Position numbers and translations under genes: made by a program. DNA of 63,575 nucleotides, the filler included, from Acidimicrobiia bacterium (lineage in GTDB: Bacteria; Actinomycetota; Acidimicrobiia; Spongiisociales; JAHEDJ01), in the NCBI GenBank assembly GCA_029210695.1. It is 5 parts of 5 records of this genome, joined end to end, with 100 filler letters (N's around TTAATTAATTAA, not from the genome) between each part and the next. Parts side by side here need not be neighbours in the genome. Positions count along the whole stretch, not along the records: positions 14,190 to 28,076 come from JARGFH010000079.1; 4 more parts are not named here. One strand, given 5' to 3'. Under the pieces are notes generated by a model that saw only the letters and a list, made by a program, of their open reading frames with translations, did not search any database and was not told the origin of the DNA. Shown here one piece after another: positions 9,489 to 49,247 of the stretch (positions are counted from its first letter, which is position 1; each line of letters begins with the position of its first letter).

Positions 9489-9490
9489 GG

Positions 9491-10498: not shown

Positions 10499-10501
10499 AC
10501 G

Positions 10502-11656: not shown

Positions 11657-13464
11657 CACGTCTCTGTGTCGACCCGCAGCGCAGAGATGAACGCATCTTG
11701 CGGAACCTCGACGGAGCCGACCATCTTCATACGTTTCTTGCCCTCTTTCTGCCGCTCGAGGAGCTTGCGCTTTCGGCTCACATCGCCCCCGTAGCATTTG
11801 GCGATGACGTCCTTCCGGCGTGCCTTGACGGTCTCACGAGCAATCACCCTGGTTCCGATCGCAGCCTGGATGGGGACGTCGAAGAGCTGGCGGGGAATGA
11901 GCTGACGCAAACGCTCAACCATCTTCTTGCCGTAGAGATAGGCCTTCTCGTTGTGGGTGATCGTCGAGAAGGCGTCTACCGGCTGACCGTTGAGCAGGAT
12001 GTCGACCTTGACCAGGTCGGATGTCCGGTACTCCCCTGGCTCGTAATCGAGCGACGCATATCCCCTGGTCCGGGATTTGAGGTGGTCGAAGAAATCGAAC
12101 ACGACCTCCGCCAGCGGCAGGTTGTAGATCAGTTCCACTCGTTCAGGAGAAAGGTATTGCATGTGATCCATCGACCCGCGTCGAGTCTGCACCAGTTCCA
12201 TGATCGTGCCCGTGTACTCGGAAGGGGCGATGATCATCGCCCGCACATATGGCTCTTCGAGTAGCTCGATCTTTCCCCGATCCGGCAGATCCTGAGGGGA
12301 TCGGATCTCGAAACTCGACCCGTCGGTGGTCGTCACCCGGTAGGCAACCGAAGGGGCGGTGGCGACGAGGTCGAGGTTGTATTCGCGTTCGAGTCGCTCA
12401 CGGACGATCTCCATGTGTAGCAACCCGAGGAAACCACACCGGAAGCCAAAACCGAGCGCCCTGGACGACTCGGGCTCGAATACAAGGGAGGCATCGTTCA
12501 TGCGCAACTTCTCGAGGGCCTCGCGCAGGCGCTCCAGGTCGTCACCATCCGAAGGAAACAGTCCCGAATACACCATGGGCCGCGGCTCGGCATAACCGGG
12601 CAGCGGCCGCACTGCGGCTTGCCCGGGGTGGGTGATCGTGTCGCCGACCCGGATCCGATCGATCTCCTTCACTCCCGTGATCAGATAACCCACCTCGCCA
12701 GGACCCAGCCTGGCAACCGGCACAGCCAGCGGAGTCAGGACTCCCACCTCTGCAGCCGTGTGACGTTCAGCGGTCGCGGAAAATCTCACCGTATCCCCGG
12801 CGGCCAGAACCCCGTCGACCACCCGTACGTAGCAGACCACGCCGCGGTATGAGTCGTAGTACGAGTCGAAAACCAGAGCCCGCAGCTCTTCGCCTTCACT
12901 CGTTGGAGGTGGGATGTCGCGGACGATCCGGTCGAGCAACTCCTCGATGCCATCGCCGGTCTTGGCGGAGACCCGGATCACGCCGTCCGCCTCAACACCG
13001 AGGATCGAGGCGATTTCGGCTGCCACCTTGTCGGGATCGGCAGCCGGAAGATCGATCTTGTTGATGACCGGGATGATCTCCAGCCCGGCTTCAATGGCGA
13101 GGTAGGCGTTGGCCAGCGTCTGTGCTTCGACGCCCTGGGCTGCGTCGACCAGCAGGACGGCCCCTTCGCAGGCGGCGAGAGAGCGAGATACTTCGTAGCT
13201 GAAGTCGACGTGACCGGGTGTGTCGATCAGATTGAGTACGACTGGCGAACCGTCGGCGGCGTGGTAATCCAGGCGAACGGCCTGAGCCTTGATCGTGATG
13301 CCACGTTCGCGCTCCAGGTCCATGCTGTCGAGAACCTGCGCTCGCATATTCCGTTCGGAAATGGAACCAGTGCGCTCGAGCATGCGGTCGGCCAGCGTCG
13401 ACTTCCCGTGGTCGATGTGAGCGATGATGCTGAAGTTCCGGACAGAATAGGGAGAGAGACTCAC
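11656..13464 (-). CDS. lepA: Elongation factor 4 LepA
   Basis: [41 protein letters not shown]. Confidence 0.98.
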
Positions 13465-13541
13465 ACGATTACCTGTGCAGCGAGTGTCACGTTGCCGATG
13501 GGCAGTGACCCATAGGCTCTAGGAGGCGTGGACTCAAGAGT

Positions 13542-13569
13542 CTATGGCCTATGGCCTATGGCCTATGGC
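13542..13569. repeat. Heptamer tandem repeat (CTATGGC)x4
   Basis: Four perfect copies between rpsT and lepA. Confidence 0.9.
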
Positions 13570-13595
13570 CACGGCGAGGTGAGTCAAGTTCGCGA

Positions 13596-13868
13596 TCACT
13601 TGGTCGCGAGCAGTTCCGCCACATCCTTGACGAGCTTCGCTTTCCGGCGGGCGGCCGTGTTCTTGTGGAGAACGCCTTTGGTGACAGCCATGTCGATGCG
13701 CCTCTGGGCCAGTCGGGAAAGCTCCTCAGCCTTTTCTGCTTCGCCTGCTTCGGCAGCCTCGAGGGTGTTCTTGACCCGGGTCTTCAACTCGGAGCTAAGG
13801 CCCTTGTTGCGGACACGGCGCACTTCGTTCTGACGATTGCGCTTCATCTGTGACTTGATATTGGCCAT
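13596..13868 (-). CDS. rpsT: 30S ribosomal protein S20
   Basis: MANIKSQMKRNRQNE...KGVLHKNTAARRKAKL. Confidence 0.97.
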   Translation of the reverse strand: MANIKSQMKRNRQNEVRRVRNKGLSSELKTRVKNTLEAAEAGEAEKAEELSRLAQRRIDMAVTKGVLHKNTAARRKAKLVKDVAELLATK

Positions 13869-14089
13869 ACGAAATCGAAACCTCTGATGGAAACGGGGCG
13901 CGCGGCAAACTCACGCGGGCACGGAATCGTAGCAGCGGATGGGCCAAAGGAGCAAGGTCGATCGGTTGGCCCCGCGCGATTCCGGGCCTACCGTCGGTTC
14001 GCCGTTCGCCGCGGCACCTAATGGGGGTCTACGGGGCTTCTGCGGTTGTGGGAGTCTTGTGGCTGAGCCTGCTGGCCGGTGAGCACTGC

Positions 14090-14189
14090 NNNNNNNNNNN
14101 NNNNNNNNNNNNNNNNNNNNNNNNNNNNNNNNNTTAATTAATTAANNNNNNNNNNNNNNNNNNNNNNNNNNNNNNNNNNNNNNNNNNNN
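14090..14189. other. Artificial contig linker
   Basis: N44-TTAATTAATTAA-N44, which places stops in all six frames. Confidence 0.98.
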
Positions 14190-14270
14190 ATCTGGGAACA
14201 GATCCAGAATGCCGGATCGAGGGCGATGGTGAATGCTCGATATCGCTCTGGGCGGTGGGTGATCTGTGCG
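14190..14270 (-). repeat. Inverted 'head' copy of the module-delimiting repeat
   Basis: Matches 55865-55944 (22/26 and 33/37 identity in the two end blocks). Reverse complement CGCACAGATCAC...GCGATATCGAGCA...CCG^GCA matches the repeat family. Confidence 0.8.
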
Positions 14271-14367
14271 GTCTACGTCGCTCCTCCAAGTGGGGCAGTG
14301 CTGGCAAGTCGCCGGTTTCTTGGTGGCCCGGTTGCGAATCAGTGACGTGCGGCGTCTTTAGTGTGAG

Positions 14368-14883
14368 ATGGGTCGGACAGGTTTGCCATCAGCGGAGGTC
14401 ATGTCGTTGAGAGGTCTTGGCGAGGAGGAGACAGCGGTCGTCACGGAAGTGTATGAGCCGCTGCGCCGGTTTGCAGGTGTTGTCGGTCCGTTGGAGGTGG
14501 ATCCGGATGACCTTGTCCAGGAGGCCTTTCTGCGCGTGCTACGCCATGGCGCGCTGTCAGGTTTGGAGAACCCAGGTGCGTATTTGAGGCGGGTGGTGGT
14601 GAATCTGGCAGCGGATCATCGTCGCCGGTTAGGTCGCCGGCGACGAGCGTTGGCGAGGTTGGCAGCATCGTCTCCGTCTGGTGTTGACCCGGTATTCCCG
14701 TCGGATGTTGCTGATCTGCTGCACCTGGAGCCGAGGGCCAGGGCGGTGCTCTTCATGCATGACGTGGAGGGATATTCGTATCAGGAAATCGCAAACCTGT
14801 TGGGCCTGAGCGACAGCGCCGCCCGGATGGTGGCGTCGCGAGCCCGCCGACGGTTGAGGGCTGCGTTCGCCGAGGAGGTGTGA
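14368..14883 (+). CDS. ECF sigma-70 factor (module 1)
   Basis: Region 2 DDLVQEAFLRV...AYLRRVVVN; region 4 EGYSYQEIANLLG...SRARRRL. Confidence 0.92.
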   Translation: MGRTGLPSAEVMSLRGLGEEETAVVTEVYEPLRRFAGVVGPLEVDPDDLVQEAFLRVLRHGALSGLENPGAYLRRVVVNLAADHRRRLGRRRRALARLAASSPSGVDPVFPSDVADLLHLEPRARAVLFMHDVEGYSYQEIANLLGLSDSAARMVASRARRRLRAAFAEEV

Positions 14884-14884
14884 G

Positions 14885-15829
14885 ATGGAACAGGATCGTT
14901 CGGCATTCGAGTTCTTGGCAACACGCGGCACCCGCGTCGGACCTGACCTGATGGTCGAACGGCTGCAACTAGCGCTGGAGACCGAGCCCGACACCGAGCC
15001 GGGTCAGTTCCGCCGCCGGTCTTTCACGAGGAGCTGGTGGGTTCCCGTGGGAGCAGCGGCGGTGGCCGTGACGGTGGTGTTGGTTAGCTTGCTGATTCCT
15101 CCTGCTGCGCCATCAGCGGCGGCGGTGTTGGAGCAAGCGGAAGCCGCGGCTGTCCAATCGGCTACACCCGTTCCGGGGATGATGCTGCACCAGGTGGTTG
15201 ATTTCGAACGGAACCTGGAACCTACTTGTGAGGGAGGAACGGTGAGGATCGGTGGCGGTGAGGGTGGAGAGCCCCGCTACGGCACCGAGTCCTGGTTCGA
15301 CCCGGCGGGTAACCGGACCCGCGGCCATACCATCTACCCGGATGGGACATCCTCTGATTGGATCGACCTGGGCGGCGTCGAGATCTGGCAGCGAGGCGCC
15401 GAGTCGCCGTTCCGGTCAGTGGGGTGTTCAATGAGGGGGGGACCCACTGAACCACCCGACCCGGCCAATCTGGCACTGCTAGATGCCCTCAACGCTGTAT
15501 CTGATCCGGAAGCGGATCTGGTCGAGCGGGCAGCTGCTTTCGAGACGCTGCGGGGTTTCGAAGCGGTCGAGCTGCTTGCGGGCGAGCACGTAGATGCCAC
15601 CGGCCGTCGCGTGCTGGTACTGGAGGTGTCCCTAGAGGATGTGCTGGGCGAGCGCCAGGTAGCCGACCTCAAGTTCGACCCGGATACCTATCAACTCCTC
15701 GAAACAGCCAACTCCATCGATGGCCCGATGGTAAGGGGCACCGTGCGGATCACTGTTCTCGTCGAGGAATGGATCGAGGTGGATGATGAACTCTTCGATG
15801 TCACCGGATACACCAAGCAGACGGGATAG
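14885..15829 (+). CDS. Putative single-pass anti-sigma/sensor protein
   Basis: Directly after the sigma gene; short cytoplasmic N-terminus, one TM (WVPVGAAAVAVTVVLVSLLI), SAAAVLEQA then an acidic ectodomain. Confidence 0.7.
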   Translation: MEQDRSAFEFLATRGTRVGPDLMVERLQLALETEPDTEPGQFRRRSFTRSWWVPVGAAAVAVTVVLVSLLIPPAAPSAAAVLEQAEAAAVQSATPVPGMMLHQVVDFERNLEPTCEGGTVRIGGGEGGEPRYGTESWFDPAGNRTRGHTIYPDGTSSDWIDLGGVEIWQRGAESPFRSVGCSMRGGPTEPPDPANLALLDALNAVSDPEADLVERAAAFETLRGFEAVELLAGEHVDATGRRVLVLEVSLEDVLGERQVADLKFDPDTYQLLETANSIDGPMVRGTVRITVLVEEWIEVDDELFDVTGYTKQTG

Positions 15830-17099
15830 TCGCCGACCGGCCATAGTTGGCCGCGCCAGCTCGCCAGTGGTCGGACTCATCGCAGCGTCCGCATTGGTAC
15901 TTGCGGCCTGTGGCAACGGCGCCGAGACTGCGACCACTGCCCCGTACCAATCGTCAACTACACAATCGACCGCGGCAACTACATCATCGGTGGGGACTTC
16001 CTCCACAGCCACAATGATGCCCGAGACGCCGACCACAACAACGACTCGTGCTGAGGATCCGTGGCGACGGATCGCTTCTTCTCCACTCGAGGGCCGGTAT
16101 GCGCACGGATCAGCGTGGACCGGCGATCAGCTGGTGATCTGGGGTGGAATCTATCGGTCGGGTGACACTCTGGTCGATCTCACCGACGGAGCCGCCTACA
16201 ACCCGGCCAGCGACACGTGGCGGTCTCTGTCTCCGGCACCTTCGGATCTGGCGGGGCCAGCGGATGCGGTCTGGACCGGCCAAGAGATGATCGTACGGAC
16301 CGATCGTGTCCCCGACGGTCCAGCCGTAATGGCCGCCTATCAGCCAGCTGCGGACACCTGGCGGGTCATCGAAGGCGGGCCCGGCGCCGTACGGGAGGGC
16401 TATACGCTCCTCTGGACAGGAACCGACCTGATCATCTGGGGCGGCAACTCCGGCGACATGCTCGCCGGTCCCACCCTCGGCGCCGCCTACGACCCAACAA
16501 CCGACAGGTGGCGTGCAATTCGGGAATCGCCCATCGCCCCGCGAACCGGACACCAGACGGTCTGGACGGGGGAAGAGATGATCATCTGGGGAGGCCGGGG
16601 AAGCTGCGCCGGGAAAGACTCCACCTGTGTCGAGGACCTCACCGACGGTGCCGCCTACAACCCCGCCACCGACACCTGGCGGACTCTTCCGACGTCGGGC
16701 GACCTCCAAAGCTCAGCAGTGGCGGTATGGGATGGCGACCAGATCCTCTTCTGGAGTCAAGACGAGTGCACCCGGCGGTGCCTGGTCGGAGAGGCGTACG
16801 ATCCGCAGACAGACTTCTGGCTGCAGCTTCCCGACCCTCCAGCGCCAGCCACATCCGATCTGTACCGTGCGTTATGGATAGGTGACCGGGCACTCCTCTG
16901 GAATCAGGACGGCACCGCCCTCACCTACCAACCCAACACGGCAACCTGGCAAACCCTCCCACCGTACCCAAGTGCCGACCGCCGATTCTTCTTAACCCTC
17001 GGATGGACCGGGCAGGCCGTCATCGTATGGGGAGGATGGAACGGTCACGCCTTCACCCCGCCAAGCAACGACGGAGCCGCCCTAGACCCAACACCATGA
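15798..17099 (+). CDS. Kelch-like beta-propeller lipoprotein
   Basis: Lipobox VLAAC, Thr-rich linker, repeats WTGxxxIIWGG...GAAYNPxTDTWR. Start uncertain (15783 or 15798). Confidence 0.85.
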   Translation: MSPDTPSRRDSRRPAIVGRASSPVVGLIAASALVLAACGNGAETATTAPYQSSTTQSTAATTSSVGTSSTATMMPETPTTTTTRAEDPWRRIASSPLEGRYAHGSAWTGDQLVIWGGIYRSGDTLVDLTDGAAYNPASDTWRSLSPAPSDLAGPADAVWTGQEMIVRTDRVPDGPAVMAAYQPAADTWRVIEGGPGAVREGYTLLWTGTDLIIWGGNSGDMLAGPTLGAAYDPTTDRWRAIRESPIAPRTGHQTVWTGEEMIIWGGRGSCAGKDSTCVEDLTDGAAYNPATDTWRTLPTSGDLQSSAVAVWDGDQILFWSQDECTRRCLVGEAYDPQTDFWLQLPDPPAPATSDLYRALWIGDRALLWNQDGTALTYQPNTATWQTLPPYPSADRRFFLTLGWTGQAVIVWGGWNGHAFTPPSNDGAALDPTP

Positions 17100-17147
17100 C
17101 CGAACAGCAACGTCCAGGAAGCGTCGACGAGTCAGCAGATCCCCATG

Positions 17148-17268
17148 CGCTCCGATCACCCGCTATGCGCCATATCAAACACTTCGCGGACCGCACCCGG
17201 ACGGCACCACTGCGCTCGGGTATCTGAGTACCGTCCGACCACGGTGCGTGGAGTGTTGTCGGCGGTGG
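17148..17268 (+). repeat. Module-delimiting repeat, copy 1, with long imperfect hairpin
   Basis: CGCTCCGATCACC-CGCTATGCGCCATATC...GGACG^GCAC; stems 17178-17188/17247-17257 and 17198-17204/17231-17237. Confidence 0.75.
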
Positions 17269-17331
17269 GCCGCTCTTCGCATTGTTTGAGATTCTTGTAC
17301 ACCGTCATGCCGTGTGATGCGTGATAGTGGT

Positions 17332-17886
17332 GTGGAAACGGTACGAAGATCAGCAAGGGTGGTTGTGAGCGAAAACATCCCAGCGATGCCCCGGATCGAG
17401 GGGTTTGATGCTTTCTACGCCAGTGAGTACCCGCGGGCAGTGGCGGTGGCGCACGCTCTATTGGGCGGTGGCCTTGTCGCTGAGGACGTCGTACAGGAAA
17501 CGTTTTTGGCGACCTATCGACAGTGGGATCGGGTCTCGAGGTATGAGAACCCGCGCGCTTGGGTGCGGCGGGTGCTGGTGAACCGGGCGACGTCTTCGCT
17601 GCGGCGGCGGTCGGCCGAGTGGCGGGCCGTCATGCGTCTTTCTGGGCGGGTCGACCCGGGGTGGGTGAGCGCAATCGAGCCGGAGTCCAGTGAGGTGTGG
17701 AAGGCGGTGTCGCAGTTACCGAAGCGGCAGGCGCAGTCGGTTGCTCTCTATTACGTCGATCAGTTGAGCCTTGACGAGATCGGCGAGGTGCTGGGATGTA
17801 GCGCCGGGACGGTCAAGACCCACTTGAGCCGGGCCAGAACCAGGCTGGGTCGGAAGCTGAATGAGTTCAACGAGGTGACGGGATGA
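17332..17886 (+). CDS. ECF sigma-70 factor, SigE-like (module 2)
   Basis: AEDVVQETFLATYRQW, WVRRVLVN, LPKRQ, GTVKTHLSRAR. Start uncertain. Confidence 0.93.
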   Translation: METVRRSARVVVSENIPAMPRIEGFDAFYASEYPRAVAVAHALLGGGLVAEDVVQETFLATYRQWDRVSRYENPRAWVRRVLVNRATSSLRRRSAEWRAVMRLSGRVDPGWVSAIEPESSEVWKAVSQLPKRQAQSVALYYVDQLSLDEIGEVLGCSAGTVKTHLSRARTRLGRKLNEFNEVTG

Positions 17887-19346
17887 ATCGACTTGAGGAC
17901 CGGCTCCGACGTACGTCAAGGGAGCTACGTGAGGCGACAGCTCATCTCACCGCCCCCCCGCTAGAGGGTGCCCGAACCCGTGCGCGACGCCGGTTGGTGT
18001 TGGGGTTCGTTGGGGGGGCGGCGGTAGTTCTCTTTCTGATTGGCGGTGTTGCGCTGCTTCAACCCAACACCCCCGACCGGCCGATTGCCAACACCACGGT
18101 GGCACCCTCGACCACGGTGGCACCGTCGACCACGGTGGCGGAGGTGGACTGGACTGGGGGTTGGGTGGTGCTGTCGAGCGACCCCCGGGTGGTGCAAGCT
18201 CCCGACGACCCGGCACCTCTGTCGCCTCTCCCATCGGGCACCGAGATCCCCCTCCTGCCTATCACGTCTCTGAGGAGCCAGGACGTCGAAGCGATAGGCG
18301 TCTACGAGGGCGACCAACCGATCGTCGCGGTGGGTGTACTTGGTACCGGCGATCGGTTGTTCGTGGTCCCACCGGGGTGGACGGGGGCTCCCACCGATGT
18401 TGGCACCTGTTATCTGATCGTCGGCGACTCCGCCGCAGGCTCCGGTGTTCTCTGTGACGAGAACTGGGATGAGCCTTTGCTGGACCCAGATCCACCCGGG
18501 TCGCTCCGTTTCATCGGACCGGTACCGTCGGGGACGAGCACGTTTGAGGCCACCGATTGTCCCCTCACGACGAACTGTTCACATGAGATCGGCGAGTACT
18601 GGCAGCGCACCCGGGGCGGGTTCGTATTCATGGAAGCCCCGTTCAACTCCCCGGTCATCCAATGGACCGCACGAGCAGCCGACGGGACCGTCCTCCAACA
18701 AGCCGAGCGTGGCCCTTTCCAGTCGCTCGCCCAATCACCCAGCCAGACCGAAGCCGACGCCCAACGTGACGGGGTTGTCCCCGAGTTGGCCAACCTCGCT
18801 TTCACCCTCAGGGTCGACCCTTTGGTCGAATGGAACACCGAGGACGGTACATGGATGATCGCCCGACCGAGCGACGACCTCATCAACTCCACCATGGCTG
18901 ACGGATGCGGATTCGGTAACCTCGAGGGGACCTACCCGACCGAGGTGATCTGCACCTCCGAATACGGTGAGATCCTCCTCGTGGACGAAACTGGGAAGAT
19001 CGCCCGCGCGTATCCGATGCCGAGTGCAGTTCCAAGCTGGATCTATGTGACCTCGAGCACCGTGTATGCCGGACGGATCGGAGACGGGGGCCTACCCGAT
19101 TCGACCCTGATCCGTATCAGCCGCGACACACTGGAAGCCACCGTAGTCCTGATACCGGCGTACTTTGATGGCGGACAGGACTGGCCACCAGGCTGGCACA
19201 TCGCCACCCCAGAACAAAGCGCCGGATATGAAGGTCTGGTGGGGTTTGCCCCCGACATGACAGGCACCACGGTCACCTCCTGGAAAGGTGACGTTGTGGT
19301 CGACATCGAAGGCATCGACCAACTGATCACCCAACTCACCGAATAA
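17883..19346 (+). CDS. Putative single-pass anti-sigma/sensor protein
   Basis: ATGA overlap with the sigma stop; MNRLEDRLRRT start, one TM, (TTVAPS) linker, large ectodomain. Confidence 0.72.
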   Translation: MNRLEDRLRRTSRELREATAHLTAPPLEGARTRARRRLVLGFVGGAAVVLFLIGGVALLQPNTPDRPIANTTVAPSTTVAPSTTVAEVDWTGGWVVLSSDPRVVQAPDDPAPLSPLPSGTEIPLLPITSLRSQDVEAIGVYEGDQPIVAVGVLGTGDRLFVVPPGWTGAPTDVGTCYLIVGDSAAGSGVLCDENWDEPLLDPDPPGSLRFIGPVPSGTSTFEATDCPLTTNCSHEIGEYWQRTRGGFVFMEAPFNSPVIQWTARAADGTVLQQAERGPFQSLAQSPSQTEADAQRDGVVPELANLAFTLRVDPLVEWNTEDGTWMIARPSDDLINSTMADGCGFGNLEGTYPTEVICTSEYGEILLVDETGKIARAYPMPSAVPSWIYVTSSTVYAGRIGDGGLPDSTLIRISRDTLEATVVLIPAYFDGGQDWPPGWHIATPEQSAGYEGLVGFAPDMTGTTVTSWKGDVVVDIEGIDQLITQLTE

Positions 19347-19496
19347 GGACAGCCGCGACACCGGACGAGAACCCAAAGTCCGTCACCGGCAAACGACCAA
19401 GAGAACCCGAAAAAGGTGTCAAAGGAAACCACTCCCGACGCGTCTTACTAACAGTGGAAGCCACCGTCACCAGCGGGGAGCCGCGATGACACAGCT

Positions 19497-19606
19497 CGCA
19501 CCCGATCACCAAATATGCGCCATAACGCACCTCACAACCACCCGTCCCCGAACGGCACTTCGAGGAGCGCGCTCCGCTTGAACGGTCGCTACTCAGTGTG
19601 GTGGTC
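19497..19606 (+). repeat. Module-delimiting repeat, copy 2
   Basis: CGCACCCGATCACCAAATATGCGCCATAACG...CACCCGTCCCCGAACG^GCAC; GATCACCA (19504-11) can pair with TGGTGGTC (19599-606). Confidence 0.8.
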
Positions 19607-19660
19607 TGCTTTCGAGTCGGGTGTCATCTCCGAAGGTTCCGCGCTCGGGGGTTGCATGAC

Positions 19661-20710
19661 CTACGGACGGCGATTCAGGTGTCGGTCGCGGAGTTGCCTG
19701 CTGCCTTCCGCATAGGGTGTGATATCCGAAACTTGGGTGAGGGAGACGCGATCCGCTGGGATCCCATGAGACTGCAACCCGATAAGGGCGCTGTCCAAGT
19801 CGATTACCGCCACCCAATCGTCGCCCAAGGTGAAGGTTTCGGCCGGATGTGAAATGTCGTCGATGAAAAACCCTGAGCTGGCCCATTTAGGGACGGGTCG
19901 TCCGTCGATTTCGATGCGGCGCTTCATCGCCCATTGATGGAATTCCTCCGGTGCCAGATCCTCAGGCCGAGGAGCCTGGCGGTACCACAGCTCGCGGGTC
20001 AGCTCTCGGCGGATGTGATCAGGTTCACGGTCGGGTCGGTCGGGTCGTTTCCATATCGTGTTGACCCGCATTTGGGGTTCGTCGGGCGGATCCCCATACC
20101 TGAGTTCGAAGTGGGTCAACATCGACCCTGACTGCCCATGCCCTCCCAAAGACCGCTGACCGGCCCAGCCCGCCAGTCCATACACCGATCCCGGGGCCGT
20201 CTGCACCATCCGGATAAGTTGCTCGGTTTCGAGGCGCTCAGCTCGGGTCGGGCTGACCGTGCGGACAAGATCAATCCACAATCCGCGCCGGCCCAACCGA
20301 AGCAGCGCCGTAGCCAGGAAGAACAGCCACACCAACAGCACCCACACAACCGTCACCAGCAGCCACGACCAGTCGAGAGTCACCCGCAACACGACCCCCA
20401 ACATCACTCCCACGACGGTCGCACCCACCCAGAACACCGGCACCGGCTCCGCGGTCCGATGCTGTATCAGCACCCGAATCACCCGGGTCGGCCAGCTCCA
20501 CCACAACGGTCCACGATCGGCCCTGGCCCAGAGCGAGGCCGAGGATCCTGCGGGCCATTCATGCCCATTTGGGCAGCGCAGCGTCGATGACGGTGCCTGA
20601 CCATCGAAGAGCCAACCTCTCAGTCGCGCCCACCGGTTCGGCGTCGCGACGACCTGCCCCTCCAATCCACAGGCCCGACATGGGCCACCACCAACCGTTG
20701 TAAGCCACAT
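19661..20710 (-). CDS. Hypothetical membrane protein (module 3)
   Basis: Long ORF with CxxC and CPNGH pairs and two TM helices; fills the space between two repeats. Start uncertain. Confidence 0.6.
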   Translation of the reverse strand: MWLTTVGGGPCRACGLEGQVVATPNRWARLRGWLFDGQAPSSTLRCPNGHEWPAGSSASLWARADRGPLWWSWPTRVIRVLIQHRTAEPVPVFWVGATVVGVMLGVVLRVTLDWSWLLVTVVWVLLVWLFFLATALLRLGRRGLWIDLVRTVSPTRAERLETEQLIRMVQTAPGSVYGLAGWAGQRSLGGHGQSGSMLTHFELRYGDPPDEPQMRVNTIWKRPDRPDREPDHIRRELTRELWYRQAPRPEDLAPEEFHQWAMKRRIEIDGRPVPKWASSGFFIDDISHPAETFTLGDDWVAVIDLDSALIGLQSHGIPADRVSLTQVSDITPYAEGSRQLRDRHLNRRP

Positions 20711-20750
20711 GGCACGGCCGCTTGATCGCATCCAAGCAGTATGCCAGCCA

Positions 20751-20846
20751 CGCACAGATCACTCTGATATCGCGCCATAACGAGCACATCGCCCACCCGT
20801 CCTGGATCGGCACGTCGGCGGGCGGCGGCGGAACCACCCAGAGTGG
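20751..20846 (+). repeat. Module-delimiting repeat, copy 3
   Basis: CGCACAGATCACTCTGATATCGCGCCATAACGAGCAC...CACCCGTCCTGGATCG^GCAC; TCACTCTG (20759-66) pairs with CAGAGTGG (20839-46). Confidence 0.82.
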
Positions 20847-20936
20847 CGCAACACCGGATCACGGGGATGGAACCCGGACTGGTGCTGCGGGCATACCCGT
20901 GATGTGAGGTACGGTGCCCGTCTGTTGGGAGGTTCG

Positions 20937-21059
20937 GTGGTCGACGATGTGCGTGGTGATGCGCGGGATTGGCCGCTGGTCGTTGGCGGTGATCACGCGG
21001 CGTTCGAGCGCGTCTTCGACCGTCATGCCGATCTGATCTATCGGTTTGCGCGGCGCCGC
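20937..21059 (+). pseudogene. 5' fragment of a transposon-split ECF sigma factor (module 4)
   Basis: GGGAGG RBS, GTG 20937: MVDDVRGDARDWPLVVGGDHAAFERVFDRHADLIYRFARRR; joins in frame to 24938. Confidence 0.88.
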
Positions 21060-21112
21060 CTCCCGTGTGATTGAGTGGTGATTATGTCGCACCCCTCCGG
21101 TAGGCTGTGGGC

Positions 21113-22311
21113 GTGGCTAAGGGACGACCGATCGGAAGTGGTGCGAAGGATCTACCTTCATGCGTCCAACATCCAGGGAGCCGTGTGTAAAGAACGGCAC
21201 ATACGGAACAGGCAACGACAAGCGCCAGATGTTCCGTTGCATCCCCACAGATGGACCGGTCCACAAGTTCGCCGGAGTGATACCCCGGCTTGTGAATGAG
21301 AGCCATTCGTGCGACCACTGCGAGAACACAGTGGCAAGTCACGAAGGGCCCCGCGTTGCTCATCGCTACGAGTTTCCCGTGGCCCAAGCTGCTGCGGCGC
21401 TGGTCATGATCGGCCAGGGCGTTTCCTATACCGAGACTGCCGACCGGATGCGTGCTCGGAACTTCCGAGACAGGTTTGATGGCGGAGCGCAGCTGGTGTG
21501 CAACTGGGCTGAGATTCTGGGTCCAGTTGTTGTGAGTGAGTACACGGAGACTGAATGGCCTGAGACAGTCGTCTTGGACGCAACGTGGTTCATGGTGACC
21601 AACAAGCGCACCGGAGACACCACAAGGGCGTTCAGTGTTCTCGGCGCCCACGGGTACCCCGAGGGACACAAGCGGGGGCGGTGTTGGATGCTGCGCGCAA
21701 CGCCAACTCGAACGGCACGGGACTGGGAGAACGTGCTGCGGAGCTTGCCGGGTGAGCCCAAGATGGTCATCTGTGACGAAGACGCTGCCATCATCGCTGC
21801 AGTATCGAAAGTCTGGCCTGATGCGTTCATCAAACGGTGTGAACACCACCTGCGCGAGAGCGTCATCAAGAAAATGGCCCCCTATGGTCTCACCGCTTAC
21901 GGAAGCCCTGAGATGGAGCTGCTCAATGACGGCTTTCACAGCTCCAAGAGTTGGCGTGCATTCAAGAAGAAGGTGAGCGGCGCCGGCGTGGAGGACTGGA
22001 TCGTGCGACGCGAAGAGGTGATTGGGGAACAAGTGCGACTGCGCGGGCGTCTCCCCCAACACCACTCGACAGGAGCGCTCGATGAGGACTTGGCGAGGGT
22101 GCGAGAGTTCATGGAGCCTCGAGCGTTCTGCTATCGCAATGCCGAGAGGACGAACCGGCTGTTAGAGCTGGTGCGACTACGGCTCAGCCGATGTGACGAT
22201 CCGTTGATCTACGCCAGAGCCATTCGCAAGCACCTCGACTCCAACGGAGGCAAGCTCGGCAAGCAAGGAACCATCAGAGACAAAGCGGGCCATCCGAGTT
22301 TGCGGGCGTAG
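21113..22311 (+). pseudogene. Mutator-like DDE transposase, probably frameshifted near 21187 (main ORF 21160-22311)
   Basis: VVLDATW (D1), VICDEDAAIIAAVSKVWP...RCEHH (D2 + CxxH), STGALDE. The upstream frame GTG21113 MAKGRP...CVQHPGSRV* supplies the first half of a CH-CH zinc finger. Confidence 0.75.
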
Positions 22312-22346
22312 CGCCGTCAACCAGTCTCATCCCGCACTGGGTGTCT

Positions 22347-23510
22347 CTACCGGTTGCCCTTAGCCTGGTTGTGTGTCTTGCAGAGCATCTGACAGTTTGA
22401 GGCAACAGTGGGACCGTCCTTGCTCCACGCAGCCACATGATCTGCGTTCATGTCAGCGAAGGGCCAGATCTTGGCCTTGTTGGCATTCTGACCGATGGCA
22501 CAGAGTGGGCAGTTGGATTCTCCGCTCTTCTTCGCTTCGGTCGTCTGCTTCTCGTAGACCGAGCGACTTGTGGCTGTGTCGAATACGCGAACGTTGAGAA
22601 GTTTGGTGTCGGTTGAGCCACCGAGCAGGTACTCGTAGATGCCCCTGCGGTTCTGCACGTAAGGGTCGCCATAGAGCTTCTTCACTTCCGCATCGATTGC
22701 AGCCGGGTCGTAGGGTCTCTTGTGGTACTGCTCGTAGAGTCGCCCCCACTCCAAGCCGCACATCTCATTCTCAACTGACAAGAAGAGACCCGCCACCCAG
22801 TCGATCACGGTGTTGAAGTAGGTCTTCACTTCGCTGATGTTGTCGTTGTGGCGGTGCTTGCTCATGTAGTCATCCACGTCGCCCTTGCTCACCCACTCGA
22901 GCGCGCGCTCCCAGATGTCCTGACGATTCGCGCTGCCCGCCACGTAGGCGCCCCACTTCTGGATGTTGGCGTTCTGGCTGTTGGAAAACTCTGCTTTGCC
23001 GGCAGTCACGAACGGGCCTGAGTAGATGGCGTTGAGGAGCTCTTGGTTGTTGAGCGGAATCCCGGCAATGTTGATCGTCTTGAACCATTGCTTGATTTCG
23101 GTCTCCGTGCCGCTGCATTCGTAGACGAGGATCTCGGACTCGATGATCTTTGTCTGCTGATCCTCGGCCAGACCGCTGAAATACTGCTGCATACCGTTGG
23201 CATCGGTGATGGCAAACTTGTCGGTCACGAACCGGCCGAAGCTGGTGATCCTCTGCTGGCCATCGAGGACTTCCAGCCGGTCCTCGCCTGCACGGTTGAA
23301 GTAGATGAGCCCCAGCGGATAACCCTTCAAGAGCGAATCGACCACGGCAACATCACGCTTGCCATCGGCGTAGATGTAGTTGCGCTGATACTCCGGCTGG
23401 ATCGTCAACTTGCCCGCAAGACCAAACAGACCCCTGCCTTCCAACTCGTTGTAGACGAACCCCTCCGACACCTGCTCAACGGTGTAGCGTGTTAGTGTCG
23501 TTTCCATCAT
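22347..23510 (-). CDS. DUF262 (GmrS-like) + HNH endonuclease
   Basis: [27 protein letters not shown]-terminal CPLC...[11 protein letters not shown]...[13 protein letters not shown]. Confidence 0.9.
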
Positions 23511-23571
23511 GCGGCCTTTCGGTGGCGGATGAAGATTCGCTGGTAGGCCGACTGGATCACTCGCCCGTTCT

Positions 23572-24705
23572 TCATTGGGTTCTCCGTCGGATGAGAAGTC
23601 GTGCGTAGGTGGCTTTGAAGGTGCCATCCGGCATCTTGATCGCGGCACGCCTGTTCAGGTCTCCAGGCTTGGGAACATCGCCCTTTCGGTACTCCTTGGT
23701 TTTCAGGCCATATTCGTTGCCGCGGTCGGTGATGCCAAGAATCTCGAACTGCTCGGGGTTGTACTTGTCGAGGAAGCTGATCGGTACACCCATCGCACCT
23801 GGGTAGTCGCTCGGGATGGCGTCGGTGAACGGCACCTCGATCGCGTCATAGTTGTCGTACTTCTTGTAGCCGACCCCCCTGATCTCTTTGTGCTTGCTGA
23901 ATCTCTTGTTGTCAGCCTGGGTCATCAGGGCGAGGGGTTGGTGACGGCGGCCATGGTCAAGGTTCGTGAACCAACACGAGTTGCCGAGACGCGTGTAGTC
24001 GCCTTCATAGCCGAGACGAGCGGCTTTTTCCTTATCGGCGGCCTTGACCTCTGACCCGGGGGGTACACCGAACACCATGTCGCTTCCGTTGGCGGTAGCT
24101 CCAAGCCACAGTCGGTCAGTCTGGATCAGGGGAAAGACCTCCTTGTATGTGATGGCGTTCATGTTGCCCACGATGACAAGCTGCTTGCCTGCTTCCATGA
24201 TCCAGGCCAAGAACTCACGGAAGAGTGAGAACGGGGGGTTGGTGATGACCATATCGGCTTCATCTCGAAGACGACGGACCTCGTCACTGCGGAAGTCACC
24301 ATCGCCCACGAGGTATTGCCACTCCAAGTCGTTGACGTCGATCCTCTGGTCATTATTCACGTCACGGCTGAGGGTGAAGATCTTTCCGTCGGCCTTCGTC
24401 TTCGCCCGGTCGAACTGGGGGCTTTCAGCCTCAAAGAGTGTGGGTTGCATGGAATACGCGACTGCTGTCGGTGCATAGCTCGTGCTGATTAGCTTCTTCA
24501 GACCCAGCTTCTCAAAGTTCTGTGCGAAGTACTTGGTGAAGTTGCTCCACTCGGGGTCGTCACACGGCAGCAGCACCGTCTTGCCACGGAACACATCCGG
24601 GTCGTACTCGAGATAGGCGTTCATCTCCGTCTCGATGTCAGAGAACTGCGTGTAGAACTCATCGTTCTTCGCGTTCCTGGCGCTCGAAAGATTCACGTTA
24701 GCCAC
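23572..24705 (-). CDS. Adenine-specific DNA methyltransferase, EcoRI family
   Basis: [45 protein letters not shown]...[18 protein letters not shown]. Confidence 0.93.
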
Positions 24706-24937
24706 GAGCGGCTCTCCCCTGAGCTGTCAGTCGTAAGTGGCATTGCTTCGTCATTCTTAGATCTTCCCATATGGCGGTACGAGTGCGTGACTTTCTGCAG
24801 CAGTGTCGGCCCGTGCCTCACCTGGCGGCAGTCCCTTGGGGATGCCGAATGGAACTGCACCAACCCCCAACGGTACCCGAAGTAGGCCGTTCTGGGGCGG
24901 ACATAATCACCACTCAATCACACGGGGGGGGCGCCGC

Positions 24938-25450
24938 ACCGGAGATGCCGATCTCGCTGAGGAGGTTGTTTCGCAGGTGTTTCTGGAAGCCTGGCGGCAA
25001 CGCAAGCGGGTGCGACTTCTTGACGGTTCGCTGCGGTCGTGGCTGTTGGGGGTGGCCTCGAACCTGGTGAGACGTCACTGGCGGAGCCGAGATCGAGGGA
25101 GACGTGCCATCGGCCGCCTCCCTCATCCGACTCCGGTCCAGGATCACGCTGACGAGGTTGCTGATCGAACCGATGGCCAGCGACGACTGGAAGTCCTTAG
25201 AGCACAGCTCGAACGGATGCCCCGCAAGCAGGTCGAGGTGTTGCTGCTGTGGGCATGGGAGGAGCTGAGCTACAACGAGATTGCTCAGACTCTCGAGGTC
25301 CCGGTCGGCACGGTGCGGTCTCGACTCTCACGGGCACGGAAACATCTCAATGCCGGCGAGGGAACCGTCACCGAGGATCGGGCATTCCCTCATCGCAAGC
25401 CCGACGGTGACGACTCACCGGCCACGAATTCGGAAAGGAGCACAGGATGA
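24938..25450 (+). pseudogene. 3' fragment of the transposon-split ECF sigma factor
   Basis: TGDADLAEEVVSQVFLEAWR...WLLGVASN...LSYNEIAQTLEVPVGTVRSRLSRAR. Confidence 0.9.
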
Positions 25451-26199
25451 ACGACTCAGACCTTTGTCGTCTGATGCTTCCCGATGACGGACTACCGCCG
25501 GAACGTCACGACCTCATCAAGGAGCGTGTCATGACCGCGGTCAGAACCGAACAACCCTTCCCCGGCAGCCAGTCCACCTCGAGTTCCCGGGTTCGTGTGC
25601 GACTGGTCCCAACCCTGGCGTCGGTGATCGCTGTCCTGCTGGTGGCGGGCACCGCTGGGGCGATGGGGCTGTTTCCTTGGCAGGCGAAGGAAACCCTCGA
25701 CTACATGGATTGCCGCACCAGCGGCAGCGTCGAGACACTTGTCGCCACCGCCGATGCAAGCGACGGGAACACCACCCAACTCTGGACCACCAGTCCAGGT
25801 CCAGACGCTGCGCCGAGCGGATTCGCCATGGTCGAGATCGATTCGCAAGGTGAATACGTCGGGGGTGTGAACGCGTGCAACACCGCCACGTGGGAGTTCG
25901 CCCCCATGGGCGAGATCTGGGTCGGAGCCCCAGCAGAAGCCTCCGCACAAGAAACGGTCCTCACCGTGCTGGGCCACGTCCCCACCGCGGCTGCCACCGT
26001 CGAGGTGACCTTCGACGACGGAAGCGTCGTGCAGACCAACGTGCAGACCGACGGCTACTTCCTCGAGCTCGTCCACGGTCCCGGCGTTGACGTCTCTCCC
26101 GGCAATCCCGAGCCGCACTTCCCGGAAGCCATCATCGTCACAGCCCTGGACACAGACGGGAACGTCATCGCCCGCCAAGACCTCCGGGATCTCGGATAG
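25447..26199 (+). CDS. Putative single-pass anti-sigma/sensor protein
   Basis: ATGA overlap, GAAAGGAG RBS, one TM (LASVIAVLLVAGTAGAMG), ectodomain. Confidence 0.72.
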   Translation: MNDSDLCRLMLPDDGLPPERHDLIKERVMTAVRTEQPFPGSQSTSSSRVRVRLVPTLASVIAVLLVAGTAGAMGLFPWQAKETLDYMDCRTSGSVETLVATADASDGNTTQLWTTSPGPDAAPSGFAMVEIDSQGEYVGGVNACNTATWEFAPMGEIWVGAPAEASAQETVLTVLGHVPTAAATVEVTFDDGSVVQTNVQTDGYFLELVHGPGVDVSPGNPEPHFPEAIIVTALDTDGNVIARQDLRDLG

Positions 26200-26282
26200 C
26201 CGAACCAGCGGACCGGCAAGCGCTCTGAGTCCCCCGCGTACCCGGGGGGCTCGGCGCATGGTCACCGCGAGACGCCCCGGGT

Positions 26283-26359
26283 CGACCGAGATCACCAAAT
26301 ACGTTGCACGAACGAGCACTCCGCCGAGAGCGCTGGATCGGCGTTTCTTGCCCGGCGGA
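26283..26359 (+). repeat. Module-delimiting repeat, copy 4 (diverged)
   Basis: GAGATCACCAAATAC...AACGAGCAC...TGGATCG^GC at the conserved 51-nt spacing; stem TCCGCCG/CGGCGGA. Confidence 0.65.
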
Positions 26360-26491
26360 TCGAACACTCACAGTTGTTCTCTCCATGATGCCGGACTGGG
26401 CCGCAACTGGCGGATGTCTATCGATAGTTGCACGCCGAAGAGGCCGCGATGAGACAATGGTGATGGTCGCGGCCTCGAATAGAAACTTGAG

Positions 26492-27352
26492 ATGGCTGAA
26501 CAAGAGCATCGTCAATCCGGGAGCGCGTCAGTCGATCATGTCGAGCGTGCTGATCCTGACGGCTCGATTCGCTCATCGATCGAGATTGCATCTGTGCTGA
26601 AGGATCCGCTGGCGAGGTCGCTTCTCGCCGCTCTTGGTGCTCCGGCCGATTCGTTGGATCGCATGCTCGCTGCCTCCGATGAACTCAGGTCGTTGGTAAC
26701 GGGATATCAGCGGTGGGCGCCGCTGTCACAGATTGGGTGGGCCATTACTGATCTCGCGACCCCGCAGGTCTATGACCAGGCGGCCGAGCTGCTCGACGCT
26801 GGGAAGCAGAGGACGGCCGAGGAGGTCCTGGAGGACTACTGGAACGAACCCGGCAGGTTGGAATCAGCTGCACTGCGGGTTCTGCGTGTCGCGATCTACT
26901 CCGAAACACGAATTCAGGTTGGTCAACGTCGGCACGAGCTCGTGGAGTTGGCGGTTGCCGATCATCGCGCAGAGAGGTATCACGCGTCGGTACCGGTTGC
27001 ACTTGCGCAGGCAGAAGGAATGGTGCGGGACGTGATCGATTCCTCCCCGTTTCTGAACCCCAACCGTCTCTCCGATGATGTATCCAGTTCGGGTCATCCC
27101 GACATTCTGCAGCCGATATTCGAATCGAGCAGGGCCACAATGAAACGCACGGTCCTCGATGTATCTGGTGTGTTCCCGCCTCGTCACGGTGTTCTTCACG
27201 GGCGTGATCTCGGATACGACAACCGGCGCAACTCCACGAAGGCGCTCATCGCCCTGACCGAGTTGGCAACCTTCTGCCAAGCCCAACTGGTCCGGGCGGA
27301 AAAGGACGGAACACTCGAGGATCTCGACCGGCAGGCGTTCGGAAGTGCATAG
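26492..27352 (+). CDS. Hypothetical helical protein with a HEPN-like RxxxxH motif (module 5)
   Basis: C-terminal PRHGVLHGRDLGY...NSTK and an upstream conserved-looking QAEG helix. Confidence 0.6.
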   Translation: MAEQEHRQSGSASVDHVERADPDGSIRSSIEIASVLKDPLARSLLAALGAPADSLDRMLAASDELRSLVTGYQRWAPLSQIGWAITDLATPQVYDQAAELLDAGKQRTAEEVLEDYWNEPGRLESAALRVLRVAIYSETRIQVGQRRHELVELAVADHRAERYHASVPVALAQAEGMVRDVIDSSPFLNPNRLSDDVSSSGHPDILQPIFESSRATMKRTVLDVSGVFPPRHGVLHGRDLGYDNRRNSTKALIALTELATFCQAQLVRAEKDGTLEDLDRQAFGSA

Positions 27353-27430
27353 GTGCCATAGGACGCACTGCGGTAGATCTCGATCAGGGTCGTCGCTCCG
27401 ATGTTTGCTGCTGGATACCCCCATGCAGTC

Positions 27431-27482
27431 CAGATCGCCAGATATGCGCCATAAAGAACGGGCCCCTGATCCGAGCCGAACG
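27431..27482 (+). repeat. Module-delimiting repeat, copy 5, cut by an IS110 insertion
   Basis: CAGATCGCCAGATATGCGCCATAAAG...GAACG followed by the IS110 end in place of GCAC. Confidence 0.78.
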
Positions 27483-27573
27483 AGGCCTGTTTGGTTGTCA
27501 AGGGGTGTTTTGGGCGCGGTGGAGTGCCTTGCCGGATCGGCAAGCTCGGTGGTGTGGGCGTAGGCTGGGGGTT

Positions 27574-27664
27574 GGCCCGGGGTGGCTTTGTGGAAGAGCC
27601 GGCGCTTCAGGATGCAACGCCGGACACGCACGCGACAGAGACGTTCCTGGGTGCCCCCCGGGCC
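27574..27664 (-). ncRNA. Predicted IS110 bridge/seek RNA
   Basis: 91 nt starting right after the transposase stop, closed by GGCCCGGGG/CCCCGGGCC, with internal stem CCGGCGTT/AGCGCCGG. Confidence 0.6.
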
Positions 27665-28076
27665 CTAACGCTTTTGGTCGGCGACGAGGTGGCGGTAGAC
27701 GACGTCAGAGAGGCGCCGTTTCAGTGACCGGATGGCTTCCTTCTTCGTTTTGCCTTCAGCGAGTTTACGTTCGTAGAAGATGCGTCCCTCAGTTCCCGGG
27801 TAGCGGAGTTGGGTGATCGCGATCAGATGCAGCGCATGGTTCAACATGCGGTTGCCTCGCGGGTTGAGCCGATGCCGCTTCTTCGACCCGGAGGAGGCGT
27901 CGATGGGGGCGGTGCCGTTGTAGGTGGCATAGTGGTGCCGGGTGGGGAACCTGGTGATGTCGCCGCTGTAGCCGATCACCAGGCCGGCTACGACCGGGCC
28001 CACGCCGTAGATGTCGGTAAGGGTGGTGCCCGACGCTGCCACTGCGGTGGCCAGGTTTGCCTTTGACGCTTTGAGT
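27665..28076 (-). CDS. IS110 transposase, C-terminal part (cut by contig end)
   Basis: IYGVGPVVAG...RFPT...GTAPIDASSG...RLNPRGNRMLNHALH...AIRSLKRRL. Confidence 0.92.
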
Positions 28077-28176: not shown

Positions 28177-28717
28177 GATCGAAGCCACCTGGGCTGAAGC
28201 TGTCGTTCAGACCTGTGTGATCCATCTGCTCCGTGCCTCGTTCCGTTACGGCTCCAATGATGACCGCAAGAAGATAGCCGCCCAGCTGCGGCCCATCTAC
28301 ACAGCAGCCACGACCGACGCCGCCGAGGCTGCCATGGCCGAATTCGAAGCAGGGCTCGGACAGAAGTATCCGGCGATCGTCAGGCTGTGGCGAGACACCT
28401 GGGAGACGTTCATCCCCTTCCTGGCCTACCCGTCGGAGATCAGACGGGTGGTGTATACCACCAACATGATCGAATCGATCAACTATCAGCTACGCAAAGT
28501 GACCAAGAACCGGGGACATTTCCCCACCGAACGGGCAGCCCTCAAACTGCTCTACCTGGCAACACGTAACATCACCACCAAGAGAGGAGGAGAAGCGGGC
28601 ACAGGAACACAAGGATGGAAGGCCTGCCTCAACCAGCTGGCCATCTACTTTCCCGGACGAATCAACATCGTCTAAATGACCACCGCCACCCACTTACACA
28701 GAATCCCTGACAGGCCC
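28177..28717 (+). mobile_element. IS256-family element, 3' part (transposase ends 28675)
   Basis: VQTCVIHLLR, YTTNMIESIN, RGHFP...ALKLLYLA; right end CACTTACACAGAATCCCTGACAGGCCC. Confidence 0.92.
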
Positions 28718-29303
28718 CGAGCAAGGTGACTGCGTTGAGGACCGTCCGGCGAACATACTGGCCGGCGCAGATCGCCTTGGAACCGACATCGGAGATCGTC
28801 AACGAGTTGAAGATGGCACCGCCTCTGAGATAGCGGTCGTGGATCCAGTCGGACTGTTGCCACACTCCCGGTGCCGATCCCACCATCGGCAACGGCAACC
28901 GTTGAGAACCAGAAGACGGTTGCCTCGACTGGCGGGTCACACCTGCCTGGGTAAGGATCCGTTCGATCGTTCGCAACCCGGGGATCGGATCGATGTTGTC
29001 TCGTTCCATCGCCGCCACAATCGACAAGCCACCCACCGAAGCCACCGGATCCGCTTTGAGACGATCCCGATACTCCAATACCAAACCGACCATCACCGCC
29101 GGTGTCTTCGTGGGCCGTTCCAACGGTGCGGTGGACCGGCCCACAAGGCTTTCCCCAGCATCGGCCCGCTGTTTCCATTTCGAGAGCCATCGTCGGGAAC
29201 GGCCCACACGGTTCGCAGCCGCCCCAACTCCCAGACCCTCTTCGTCGATCAGCCGAAGCGCCTCCACTCGACGCTCCACCTCAGACTCAAACTCACCAAC
29301 CAC
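28718..29303 (-). pseudogene. IS481-like transposase, 5' half, interrupted by IS256
   Basis: HTH AAANRVGRSRRWLSKW, RSTAP, RTIERIL, integrase core start PGVWQQSD; GAGGAGG RBS; the frame runs into the IS256 end. Confidence 0.75.
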
Positions 29304-29323
29304 AACATGCCTCCTCGCACGAT

Positions 29324-29369
29324 CAGAGGAACGATGTCATGGCGGAACAGAGGAACGATGTCCTGGCGG
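29324..29369. repeat. Two 22-bp direct repeats in the left end of the IS481-like element
   Basis: CAGAGGAACGATGTC(A/C)TGGCGG at 29324 and 29348. Confidence 0.85.
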
Positions 29370-29375
29370 TTCCCC

Positions 29376-29405
29376 CCTACTGCCTACGGCCTACTGCCTA
29401 CTGCC
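29376..29405. repeat. Heptamer tandem repeat (CCTACTG)x4
   Basis: CCTACTG CCTACGG CCTACTG CCTACTG CC. Confidence 0.88.
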
Positions 29406-29559
29406 GTTCTCAATCCGTGTGTCTCTGACTCCAGGAGTGCCGGTCGGTTCAAACCAGAACGCGAAAACTCTCCCTGGTTGTGCCAAAAACTTCCTGGTCA
29501 CGTCATTGACCCGCTGGTAGGTTGGTTTTCCGAACCCCGGTCTGGAGGAAGGAGCTGAG

Positions 29560-32911: not shown

Positions 32912-32947
32912 GCAAATAGCCTAGACATGCTCGTATTCTGTGGATAT

Positions 32948-49242: not shown

Positions 49243-49247
49243 GTCCC

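Follow-up and report, generated by a model that had tools for sequence, protein, structure and literature searches.

The window analysed here is the whole stretch of 63,575 nt from the Acidimicrobiia bacterium assembly GCA_029210695.1, with N...TTAATTAATTAA...N spacers linking its five contigs. It contains six copies of an intergenic repeat, termed repeat A, five of which are located in contig 2 and one at the end of contig 5. Two copies of an inverse sister repeat, B, and two ends of an IS110-family insertion sequence (IS) were also found (Table 1). An earlier note on this DNA had taken the repeats for the borders of an integron-like cassette array and proposed a distinct site-specific gene-capture system. 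Contigs 1, 3, and 4 are free of A copies and carry housekeeping genes, among them era, ybeY, phoH, dnaJ, hrcA, lepA, rpsT, selA/selB, and genes for Fe-S assembly and for sugar transport. The claim that housekeeping contigs lack the repeat held for these three contigs, but the copy at 63447 lies directly 3' of kdpD-kdpE, with trkH and two trkA genes close by; A is therefore not confined to accessory DNA.

Table 1. Coordinates of features in the window and, where a locus number is given, in related loci. E-values of the A copies come from a profile of 52 copies that all belong to other genomes, without window rows.
Feature	Position	Strand	Remarks
Contig 1	1-14089
Contig 2	14190-28076
Contig 3	28177-41764
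Contig 4	41865-55312
Contig 5	55413-63575
B copy	14205-14270	-	contig 2 start; B profile E 1.5e-16; reverse complement against A profile E 0.027
Extracytoplasmic function (ECF) sigma factor	14368-14883	+	Pfam Sigma70_r2/r4_2; between B and first A
Membrane partner of first sigma factor	14885-15829	+	no family above cut-off
Kelch beta-propeller protein	15783-17099	+	Pfam Kelch families
A copy 1	17147-17226	+	E 5e-13
Cassette: ECF sigma factor (17314-17886) and 487-aa partner	17314-19346	+	partner with one predicted membrane segment
A copy 2	19500-19575	+	E 9e-12
Cassette: 364-aa hypothetical protein	19661-20755	-	opposite to repeat; pattern of GC at third codon positions (GC3) fits coding
A copy 3	20749-20830	+	E 5e-12
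Composite module, 5.5 kb	21160-26199	both	IS relic, nuclease, methylase, sigma pair
IS256/MULE-like transposase relic	21160-22311	+
GmrSD-HNH nuclease	22347-23648	-
EcoRI-type adenine methylase	23572-24705	-
ECF sigma factor	24803-25450	+	in composite module
Partner of third sigma factor	25447-26199	+	in composite module
A copy 4	26284-26359	+	CACGAACG subtype; E 8e-10
Cassette: 286-aa hypothetical protein	26492-27352	+	no family; Atlas neighbours all hypothetical
A copy 5	27426-27482	+	ends after GAACG; profile positions 6-62 only, E 1e-6
IS110-family element end	27483-28076	-	non-coding end and C-terminal part of transposase (27665-28075); runs off contig
Relaxase/helicase-like gene remnant	55414-55836		C-terminal 140 codons; no family match
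B copy	55879-55944	-	after relaxase/helicase-like gene remnant; B profile E 5e-17
A copy 6	63447-63500	+	3' of kdpE; ends after TATCG; E 9e-4
Same IS110-family end	63501-63575	-	runs off contig
Other B copies, L020	3815-3879
Other B copies, L044	8566-8631
Other B copies, L034	815-878, 3536-3599, 4691-4750
Other B copies, L058	10852-10913, 15616-15680
IS110-family element, L031	about 300-1735

All six direct copies listed earlier are present on the + strand and were found with the profile from other genomes; no further + strand match to the 52-copy profile below E 0.4 occurs in the 63.5 kb. The reported spans from GATC to CG (50, 51, 53, 51, 50, and 53 nt) were correct, five being measured by script and the third by reading the sequence. 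The note's total of eight copies probably took in the two inverse B copies. The copies do not arise by chance: the 16-mer with up to three mismatches matched three times against 0.30 expected, and none of 100 shuffles reached three matches. Every window copy lies in intergenic DNA, and neither a RYYYAAC nor a GTTRRRY box was found in or beside any of the six, as had been stated for the paired boxes. Copies 5 and 6 both break off at one and the same base, where the end of an IS110-family element follows.

The family was searched for in a species-representative genome collection, which was scanned with a 21-nt degenerate pattern, and 10-kb flanks were taken. The scan yielded 75 stretches, kept as 74 loci (L-numbers). 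A profile model, as the earlier note had suggested, was built and scanned; it recovered the window copies and detected full-length A in 28 distinct loci of 24 assemblies (L005 overlaps L004). The other 45 loci match the typed pattern only and are chance-like. Beyond the window, 61 copies were counted in the 28 loci, giving a total of 67 copies in 29 sources; a wider profile found 68 in the 28 loci. Repeat A is approximately 80 bp long (about 77-87 positions) and consists of the fixed blocks GATCAC, TATGCGCCATAACG, and GAWCGGCAC, with variable stretches between them and a looser TCG..G.GCGG tail. The mean column identity over 56 copies is 57%, and the longest common block is 14 nt. Adjacent copies are co-oriented in 36 of 37 pairs and are spaced 550-5534 nt apart (median 1365). 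The longest arrays comprise eight copies in 8.2 kb (L034), six copies (L044 and L016, the latter a complete 3.48-Mb chromosome), and five copies (L020, with A at all five cassette borders). The strand of A showed no link with local GC skew, a weak proxy for the replication strand (12 of 30 sources positive), so the polarity seems to be a property of the array and not of the replichore. The complete chromosome contains a single exact match of the degenerate pattern, which suggests a low copy number, not like that of repetitive extragenic palindromic (REP) sequences.

Twenty-one of the 28 A loci are labelled Acidimicrobiia, Acidimicrobiaceae, or Actinomycetota. The remaining labels are Kiloniellales (L027 and L048), Acidobacteria (L028, L030, and L042), Gemmatimonadales (L031), and unclassified (L056); these seven loci may be mis-binned contigs, loosely labelled, or the result of transfer. 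A BLASTN search with one A copy against 72,556 plasmids and 50,697 phage records returned no match, and a plasmid or phage origin of A was rejected on that basis. Full-text searches on integrons or cassettes in Acidimicrobiia or Actinobacteria returned no published description of the repeat. As a boundary element of gene modules, repeat A is conserved, lies between genes, and keeps a strict polarity.

Comparison of the loci indicated that modules are exchanged at the repeat, with a preference for its 3' third; the breaks are spread over several positions. Cassette 1 of L016 and the next A correspond, at 89% over 684 nt, to cassette 1 of L020 and its A. The fifth cassette of L016 matches cassette 2 of L020 (86% over 638 nt) and is also present in L064 (83%). 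L016 has three extra cassettes between those shared with L020, one of which matches a cassette of L034 (85% over 665 nt). The L027 and L048 sequences are 98.5% identical as far as GGCAC and unrelated beyond it, and L020 and L064 have 466 nt in common, stopping at position 66. L063 contains an internal duplicate of 1022 nt (93.5%) whose two members follow different A copies and both begin with the final base of GGCAC. In total, 12 of 13 homology ends fall in an A or within 40 nt of one, seven of them at positions 49-81, which bears out the expectation that module gain, loss, and reordering would break at the repeat. In approximate profile coordinates, breaks occur at positions 13-17 (two), 38-45 (two), 49-54 (two), 62-66 (four), and 77-81 (one), with one further break about 30-40 nt beyond the end of A; BLAST ends at 83-90% identity are fuzzy.

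The cargo between A copies includes toxin-antitoxin genes (MazEF, VapBC, TacAT, and ParE/Phd), enzyme and transport genes (NUDIX, GNAT, EamA transporter, beta-lactamase-fold, and alpha/beta hydrolases), an AadA_C-like nucleotidyltransferase, an Rrf2-cyclase-SDR trio, an M20 peptidase, and many hypothetical proteins. Cassettes of an ECF sigma factor and its partner occur three times in the window and also in L016 and L036. Cargo genes are encoded on both strands relative to A, about half of them reversed (three of the four cassettes in L020), which speaks against a promoter or terminator function of A. Five loci (L002, L004, L025, L042, and L045) encode large adenylate/guanylate-cyclase-domain proteins, in part with AAA/NB-ARC and TPR domains; these form the largest protein cluster besides the IS110-family transposase.

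Single-strand folds of A copies, 76-115 nt long and on both strands, had z-scores from -2.2 to +1.3, with one of 16 below -2, and RNAalifold predicted no pairs on either 47 or 56 copies. A hairpin or attC-like fold of A was rejected, the folds being no more stable than those of shuffles. An inner 5-bp stem (GCAC/GTGC) proposed by eye was also rejected, with 39% of cells paired versus 40% in shuffles. The central dyad TATG..CATA was paired in 60% of cells versus 57% in shuffles, of which 2 of 500 reached that level; its covariation score was 0.092 versus 0.060 (10 of 500), a weak signal. The inverse of the 5' box of A showed no positional enrichment within 250 nt downstream of the 67 copies. 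There was no Rfam match at the gathering score or even at E 1, and ARAGORN found no tRNA or tmRNA gene in the window; A was accordingly rejected as a known RNA, tRNA, or tmRNA piece. Neither the integron integrase IntI, sought among the ORFs of the 28 loci and the window, nor a Y1 transposase of the REP-associated tyrosine transposase (RAYT) type, sought in the scanned ORFs, was detected.

Repeat B is a diverged family of 18 copies in 13 sources whose reverse complement can be aligned to A. On shared contigs, A and B have the same inverse relative orientation in 60 of 60 pairs. Eight B copies lie 16-150 nt after an A, two come one cassette after an A, and others precede the first A of the locus by 0.65-7.5 kb, including those on both window contigs. 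B may be a terminal site, a partner site, or an old transposon end. Four close A-B pairs formed no stable hairpin (z -1.15 to +0.62), and no target-site duplication was seen by eye around the eight close pairs. When A and B were considered as the left and right ends of a miniature inverted-repeat transposable element (MITE) or DDE-type element, upstream-flank homology was found to continue through the outer 5' end of A. The relaxase/helicase-like remnant at the start of contig 5, together with its B, is 76% identical over 455 nt to L058 (15620-16069); the protein identity to L058 15740-16069 is 72%, and B comes next after the gene in both genomes. The start of contig 5 also contains two tandem copies of a short motif with the appearance of an IS end.

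The only recurrent recombinase tied to A is an IS110-family transposase. The transposase part in contig 2 matched PF02371 (1.9e-17) and NF033542 (5.8e-22), and the element end there shares 77-83% DNA identity with elements in L031, L036, L037, and L063. Past the cut, both window copies of A run into one sequence that opens with GCCTGTTTGG, and positions 27481-27522 are 90% identical over 42 nt to the end of contig 5. Since both contigs end inside this element, it occurs in several copies and is a break point of the assembly. In total, six insertions directly behind GAWCG of A were identified (two in the window and one each in L031, L036, L037, and L063), each with the transposase antisense to A. 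The element in L031 has clean junctions on both sides, and the interrupted site reads as an exact A whose halves part between CG and GCAC; L053 carries a related element 15 nt further along A. The point CG^GC marked in the repeat by the earlier note is the insertion point of this element, which had gone unrecognised. The full element in L063 is approximately 1.44 kb (13722-15157), with non-coding stretches on either side of the transposase gene; its transposase scored 170 bits against the cut-off of 140 for NF033542 (IS110-family RNA-guided transposase). This copy has no inverted ends, no inverted repeat of at least 10 nt was found between the element ends, and the IS non-coding ends contained no convincing guide-RNA match or subterminal inverted repeat. 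Transposase homologues were present in 6 of 30 A-bearing sources (L005 overlapping L004) versus 0 of the 45 other loci. In L036 (approximately 4900-7510), an IS21-family element (istA/istB) is nested inside the IS110-family element sitting in A.

The Pfam search covered approximately 370 ORFs, taken from the window and from the loci that carry the repeat. No recombinase for A was seen in the window, as had been noted before. Two phage-type tyrosine recombinases, 35% identical to each other, are located 1.6-2.5 kb from an A in L048 and L063 and scored 57 and 45 bits versus the cut-off of 265 for integron integrases. Considered as the A enzyme, they are generic and have no second A or B bordering them, and no link can be claimed. 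In L048 (7248-8694), int and an excisionase-like helix-turn-helix gene lie beside A, starting where the similarity to L027 ends; in L063 (6259-9931), a segment with int and a GH25 lysozyme gene adjoins A.

As for the modules of the window, the label 'anti-sigma' for the sigma partners is putative, given from position and a single membrane segment only, without a family match. The module at 20830-26284, previously described as sigma plus anti-sigma, does contain a sigma factor and its partner, but also an IS relic, a nuclease, and a methylase. Its GC content falls to 0.57-0.59 over 22-25 kb, and no A or B was found inside it at E below 0.4. The nuclease and methylase genes (22347-24705) overlap tail to head in the low-GC patch. 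The Kelch gene has internal direct repeats at 16176-16687 with a period of 141-168 nt, which correspond to propeller blades and are distinct from repeat A. No relatives of the 364-aa protein were found in Pfam, NCBIfam, or Atlas, and there is no functional lead for it or for the 286-aa protein. Contig 3 starts inside an IS256-family (Transposase_mut) gene (28177-28675), followed by selB, selA, and a metallo-beta-lactamase-fold gene. In L016, selB is located approximately 3 kb past one array end and a metallo-beta-lactamase-fold gene farther out; the L016 region shares 69-74% DNA identity with window positions 31193-32542 (selB 3' end and selA).

We give about an even chance to the explanation that A is a double-stranded recombination site delimiting mobile cassettes in chromosomal arrays of an Acidimicrobiia clade. 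A trans-acting recombinase would pair two A copies; exchange between direct copies would excise a cassette as a circle with one A, and exchange between such a circle and a chromosomal A would insert it. Arrays could then grow, shrink, and shuffle in the fashion of integron arrays. The exchange would take place chiefly in the 3' third of A, near GAWCGGCAC, and the inverse site B would serve as a terminal site or as another partner. An integron integrase is not the enzyme; the one recombinase that recurs with A, an IS110-family RNA-guided transposase, inserts at the GAWCGGCAC block. A fuller version, which we regard as rather unlikely, is an integron-independent gene-capture platform of Acidimicrobiia in which one-to-few-gene cassettes move between polar, double-stranded 80-bp sites. 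Its recombinase would not be a tyrosine integron integrase and might be an IS110-type RNA-guided enzyme (bridge or seek RNA) acting on A, with the inverse B as terminal partner of the array.

Several observations weigh against a recombination site. In about 363 kb of DNA with the repeat, no dedicated site-specific recombinase turned up; none lies consistently beside the arrays (the six copies in L016 have no such gene within 6-8 kb), and no unknown family recurred when all 366 ORFs of the A-bearing loci were clustered. The breaks are spread over positions 13-81 and not placed at one nucleotide, whereas genuine site-specific crossover would be expected to be sharper. In L063, the right end of the duplicate is at no A or B, single A copies also adjoin core genes (kdpDE, secDF, and cobalamin genes), and only about a dozen comparisons were informative. 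Circles and active exchange are inference only, and because the breaks are scattered within A, site-specific exchange is inferred and not demonstrated. The interpretation in the earlier note is partly supported: the polar, non-attC module boundary stands, whereas its site specificity keeps that lesser status.

A minor but real possibility is that A and B are passive clade-specific intergenic repeats in flexible islands, where cassettes are swapped by homologous recombination or gene conversion and the IS110-family element finds a safe landing site. Breaks over several conserved blocks (13-17, 38-45, 49-66, and 77-81), the lack of a dedicated recombinase, and the copies beside core genes would fit this explanation, as would the known targeting of REP sequences by IS1111 relatives (PMC11187229). 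Against it, a column identity of about 57% and a longest block of 14 nt are short for RecA-driven exchange, the breaks favour the 3' third and not the longest identical block TATGCGCCATAACG, and the polarity of both A-A and A-B pairs is strict; nor does A have a REP-type palindrome or hairpin or a Y1 (RAYT) gene in the scanned ORFs, and its copy number is apparently low. It is distinctly unlikely that A is primarily the target of one IS110-family lineage and that the rearrangements are by-products; elements would insert between GAWCG and GCAC, recombine among themselves or carry flanking DNA along, and later be excised precisely, so that clean recombinant A copies remain. Six insertions at one point in one orientation, with a related L053 element 15 nt on, the restriction of the homologues to A sources as the sole recurrent recombinase family, a transposase score above the family cut-off, and the L063 duplicated cassette starting exactly at the IS junction speak for such a target. 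However, most arrays lack the IS (in L016, L020, L034, and L044, 0 of 25 A copies are interrupted), some breaks occur at a distance from the point of insertion, conservation over 55 bases upstream of that point greatly exceeds the need of an RNA guide, and the non-coding ends offer neither a convincing guide match nor a subterminal inverted repeat.

A function of A in the expression of its neighbours, as an operator, promoter, terminator, or small RNA, appears very improbable. The weakly co-varying central dyad would suit a dimeric DNA-binding protein, but neighbour genes are oriented in both directions on both sides while A orientation is fixed per array, no Rfam match was obtained, and the consensus fold of 56 copies has no pairs, with individual folds in the range of shuffles. 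Hardly credible is a true integron array without integrase (a cluster of attC sites lacking integron-integrases, CALIN) with unusual attC sites. Co-oriented sites 0.6-3 kb apart and toxin-antitoxin-rich cargo resemble such clusters, and an IS of the IS110/IS1111 kind sits in the site, as is known for attC: IS1111-family members hit attC and REP sequences by means of an RNA from their non-coding region (PMC11187229). The absence of a hairpin, of R''/R' boxes in all six window copies, and of an inverse partner box downstream, the low integrase scores of the two tyrosine recombinases, and the reversed half of the cargo genes contradict it.

Integrons are the textbook bacterial route to stockpile and shuffle small accessory genes. 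The A arrays resemble integrons and CALIN in having short co-oriented sites between small accessory cassettes, whole-cassette differences among relatives, common toxin-antitoxin cassettes, and IS110/IS1111 members inserted into the site. Unlike integrons, they have sites without a folded imperfect palindrome or RYYYAAC/GTTRRRY boxes, neither IntI nor an attI/Pc end was detected, the cargo is often multi-gene with its own regulation on either strand, several small arrays per genome are possible, and A has an inverse sister site. The host phylum is also essentially integron-free; two genome-wide surveys did not find complete integrons in Actinobacteria (PMC4889954, PMC9024848). Closer in its host is the additive island of 'Ca. 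Actinomarinales', marine Acidimicrobiia-related Actinobacteria, where small cassettes are described as being added stepwise at tRNA genes by presumed site-directed recombination, leaving tRNA-fragment direct repeats at the ends (PMC7771536). In contrast to those repeats, which are pieces of the target tRNA gene, A matches no tRNA or known RNA and keeps its conserved blocks across at least 24 assemblies. As with REP sequences and bacterial interspersed mosaic elements (BIMEs), A is a clade-specific intergenic repeat struck by an RNA-guided DEDD transposase at a fixed point and orientation; by contrast, REPs are palindromic and occur in hundreds, and a role as borders of exchangeable cassettes in polar arrays is not known for them. 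The pdif (Xer) modules of Acinetobacter plasmids share with the A arrays discrete gene modules, short recombination sites, and a recombinase encoded elsewhere. The pdif sites are 28 bp long and alternate in orientation, whereas A sites are about 80 bp and direct, and no 11-6-11 dif-like core was seen by eye, no dif model having been applied.

If A is a recombination site, the cassette-array architecture would have arisen more than once, with a different, unfolded site, and the arrays would point to an as yet unnamed recombinase-site pair. The site family provides a direct handle: genomes can be scanned for it, co-occurrence may reveal its partners, and reporter constructs can be used to test it. 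The link between A and the IS110-family element would be a natural case of an RNA-guided element specialising on a recombination site.

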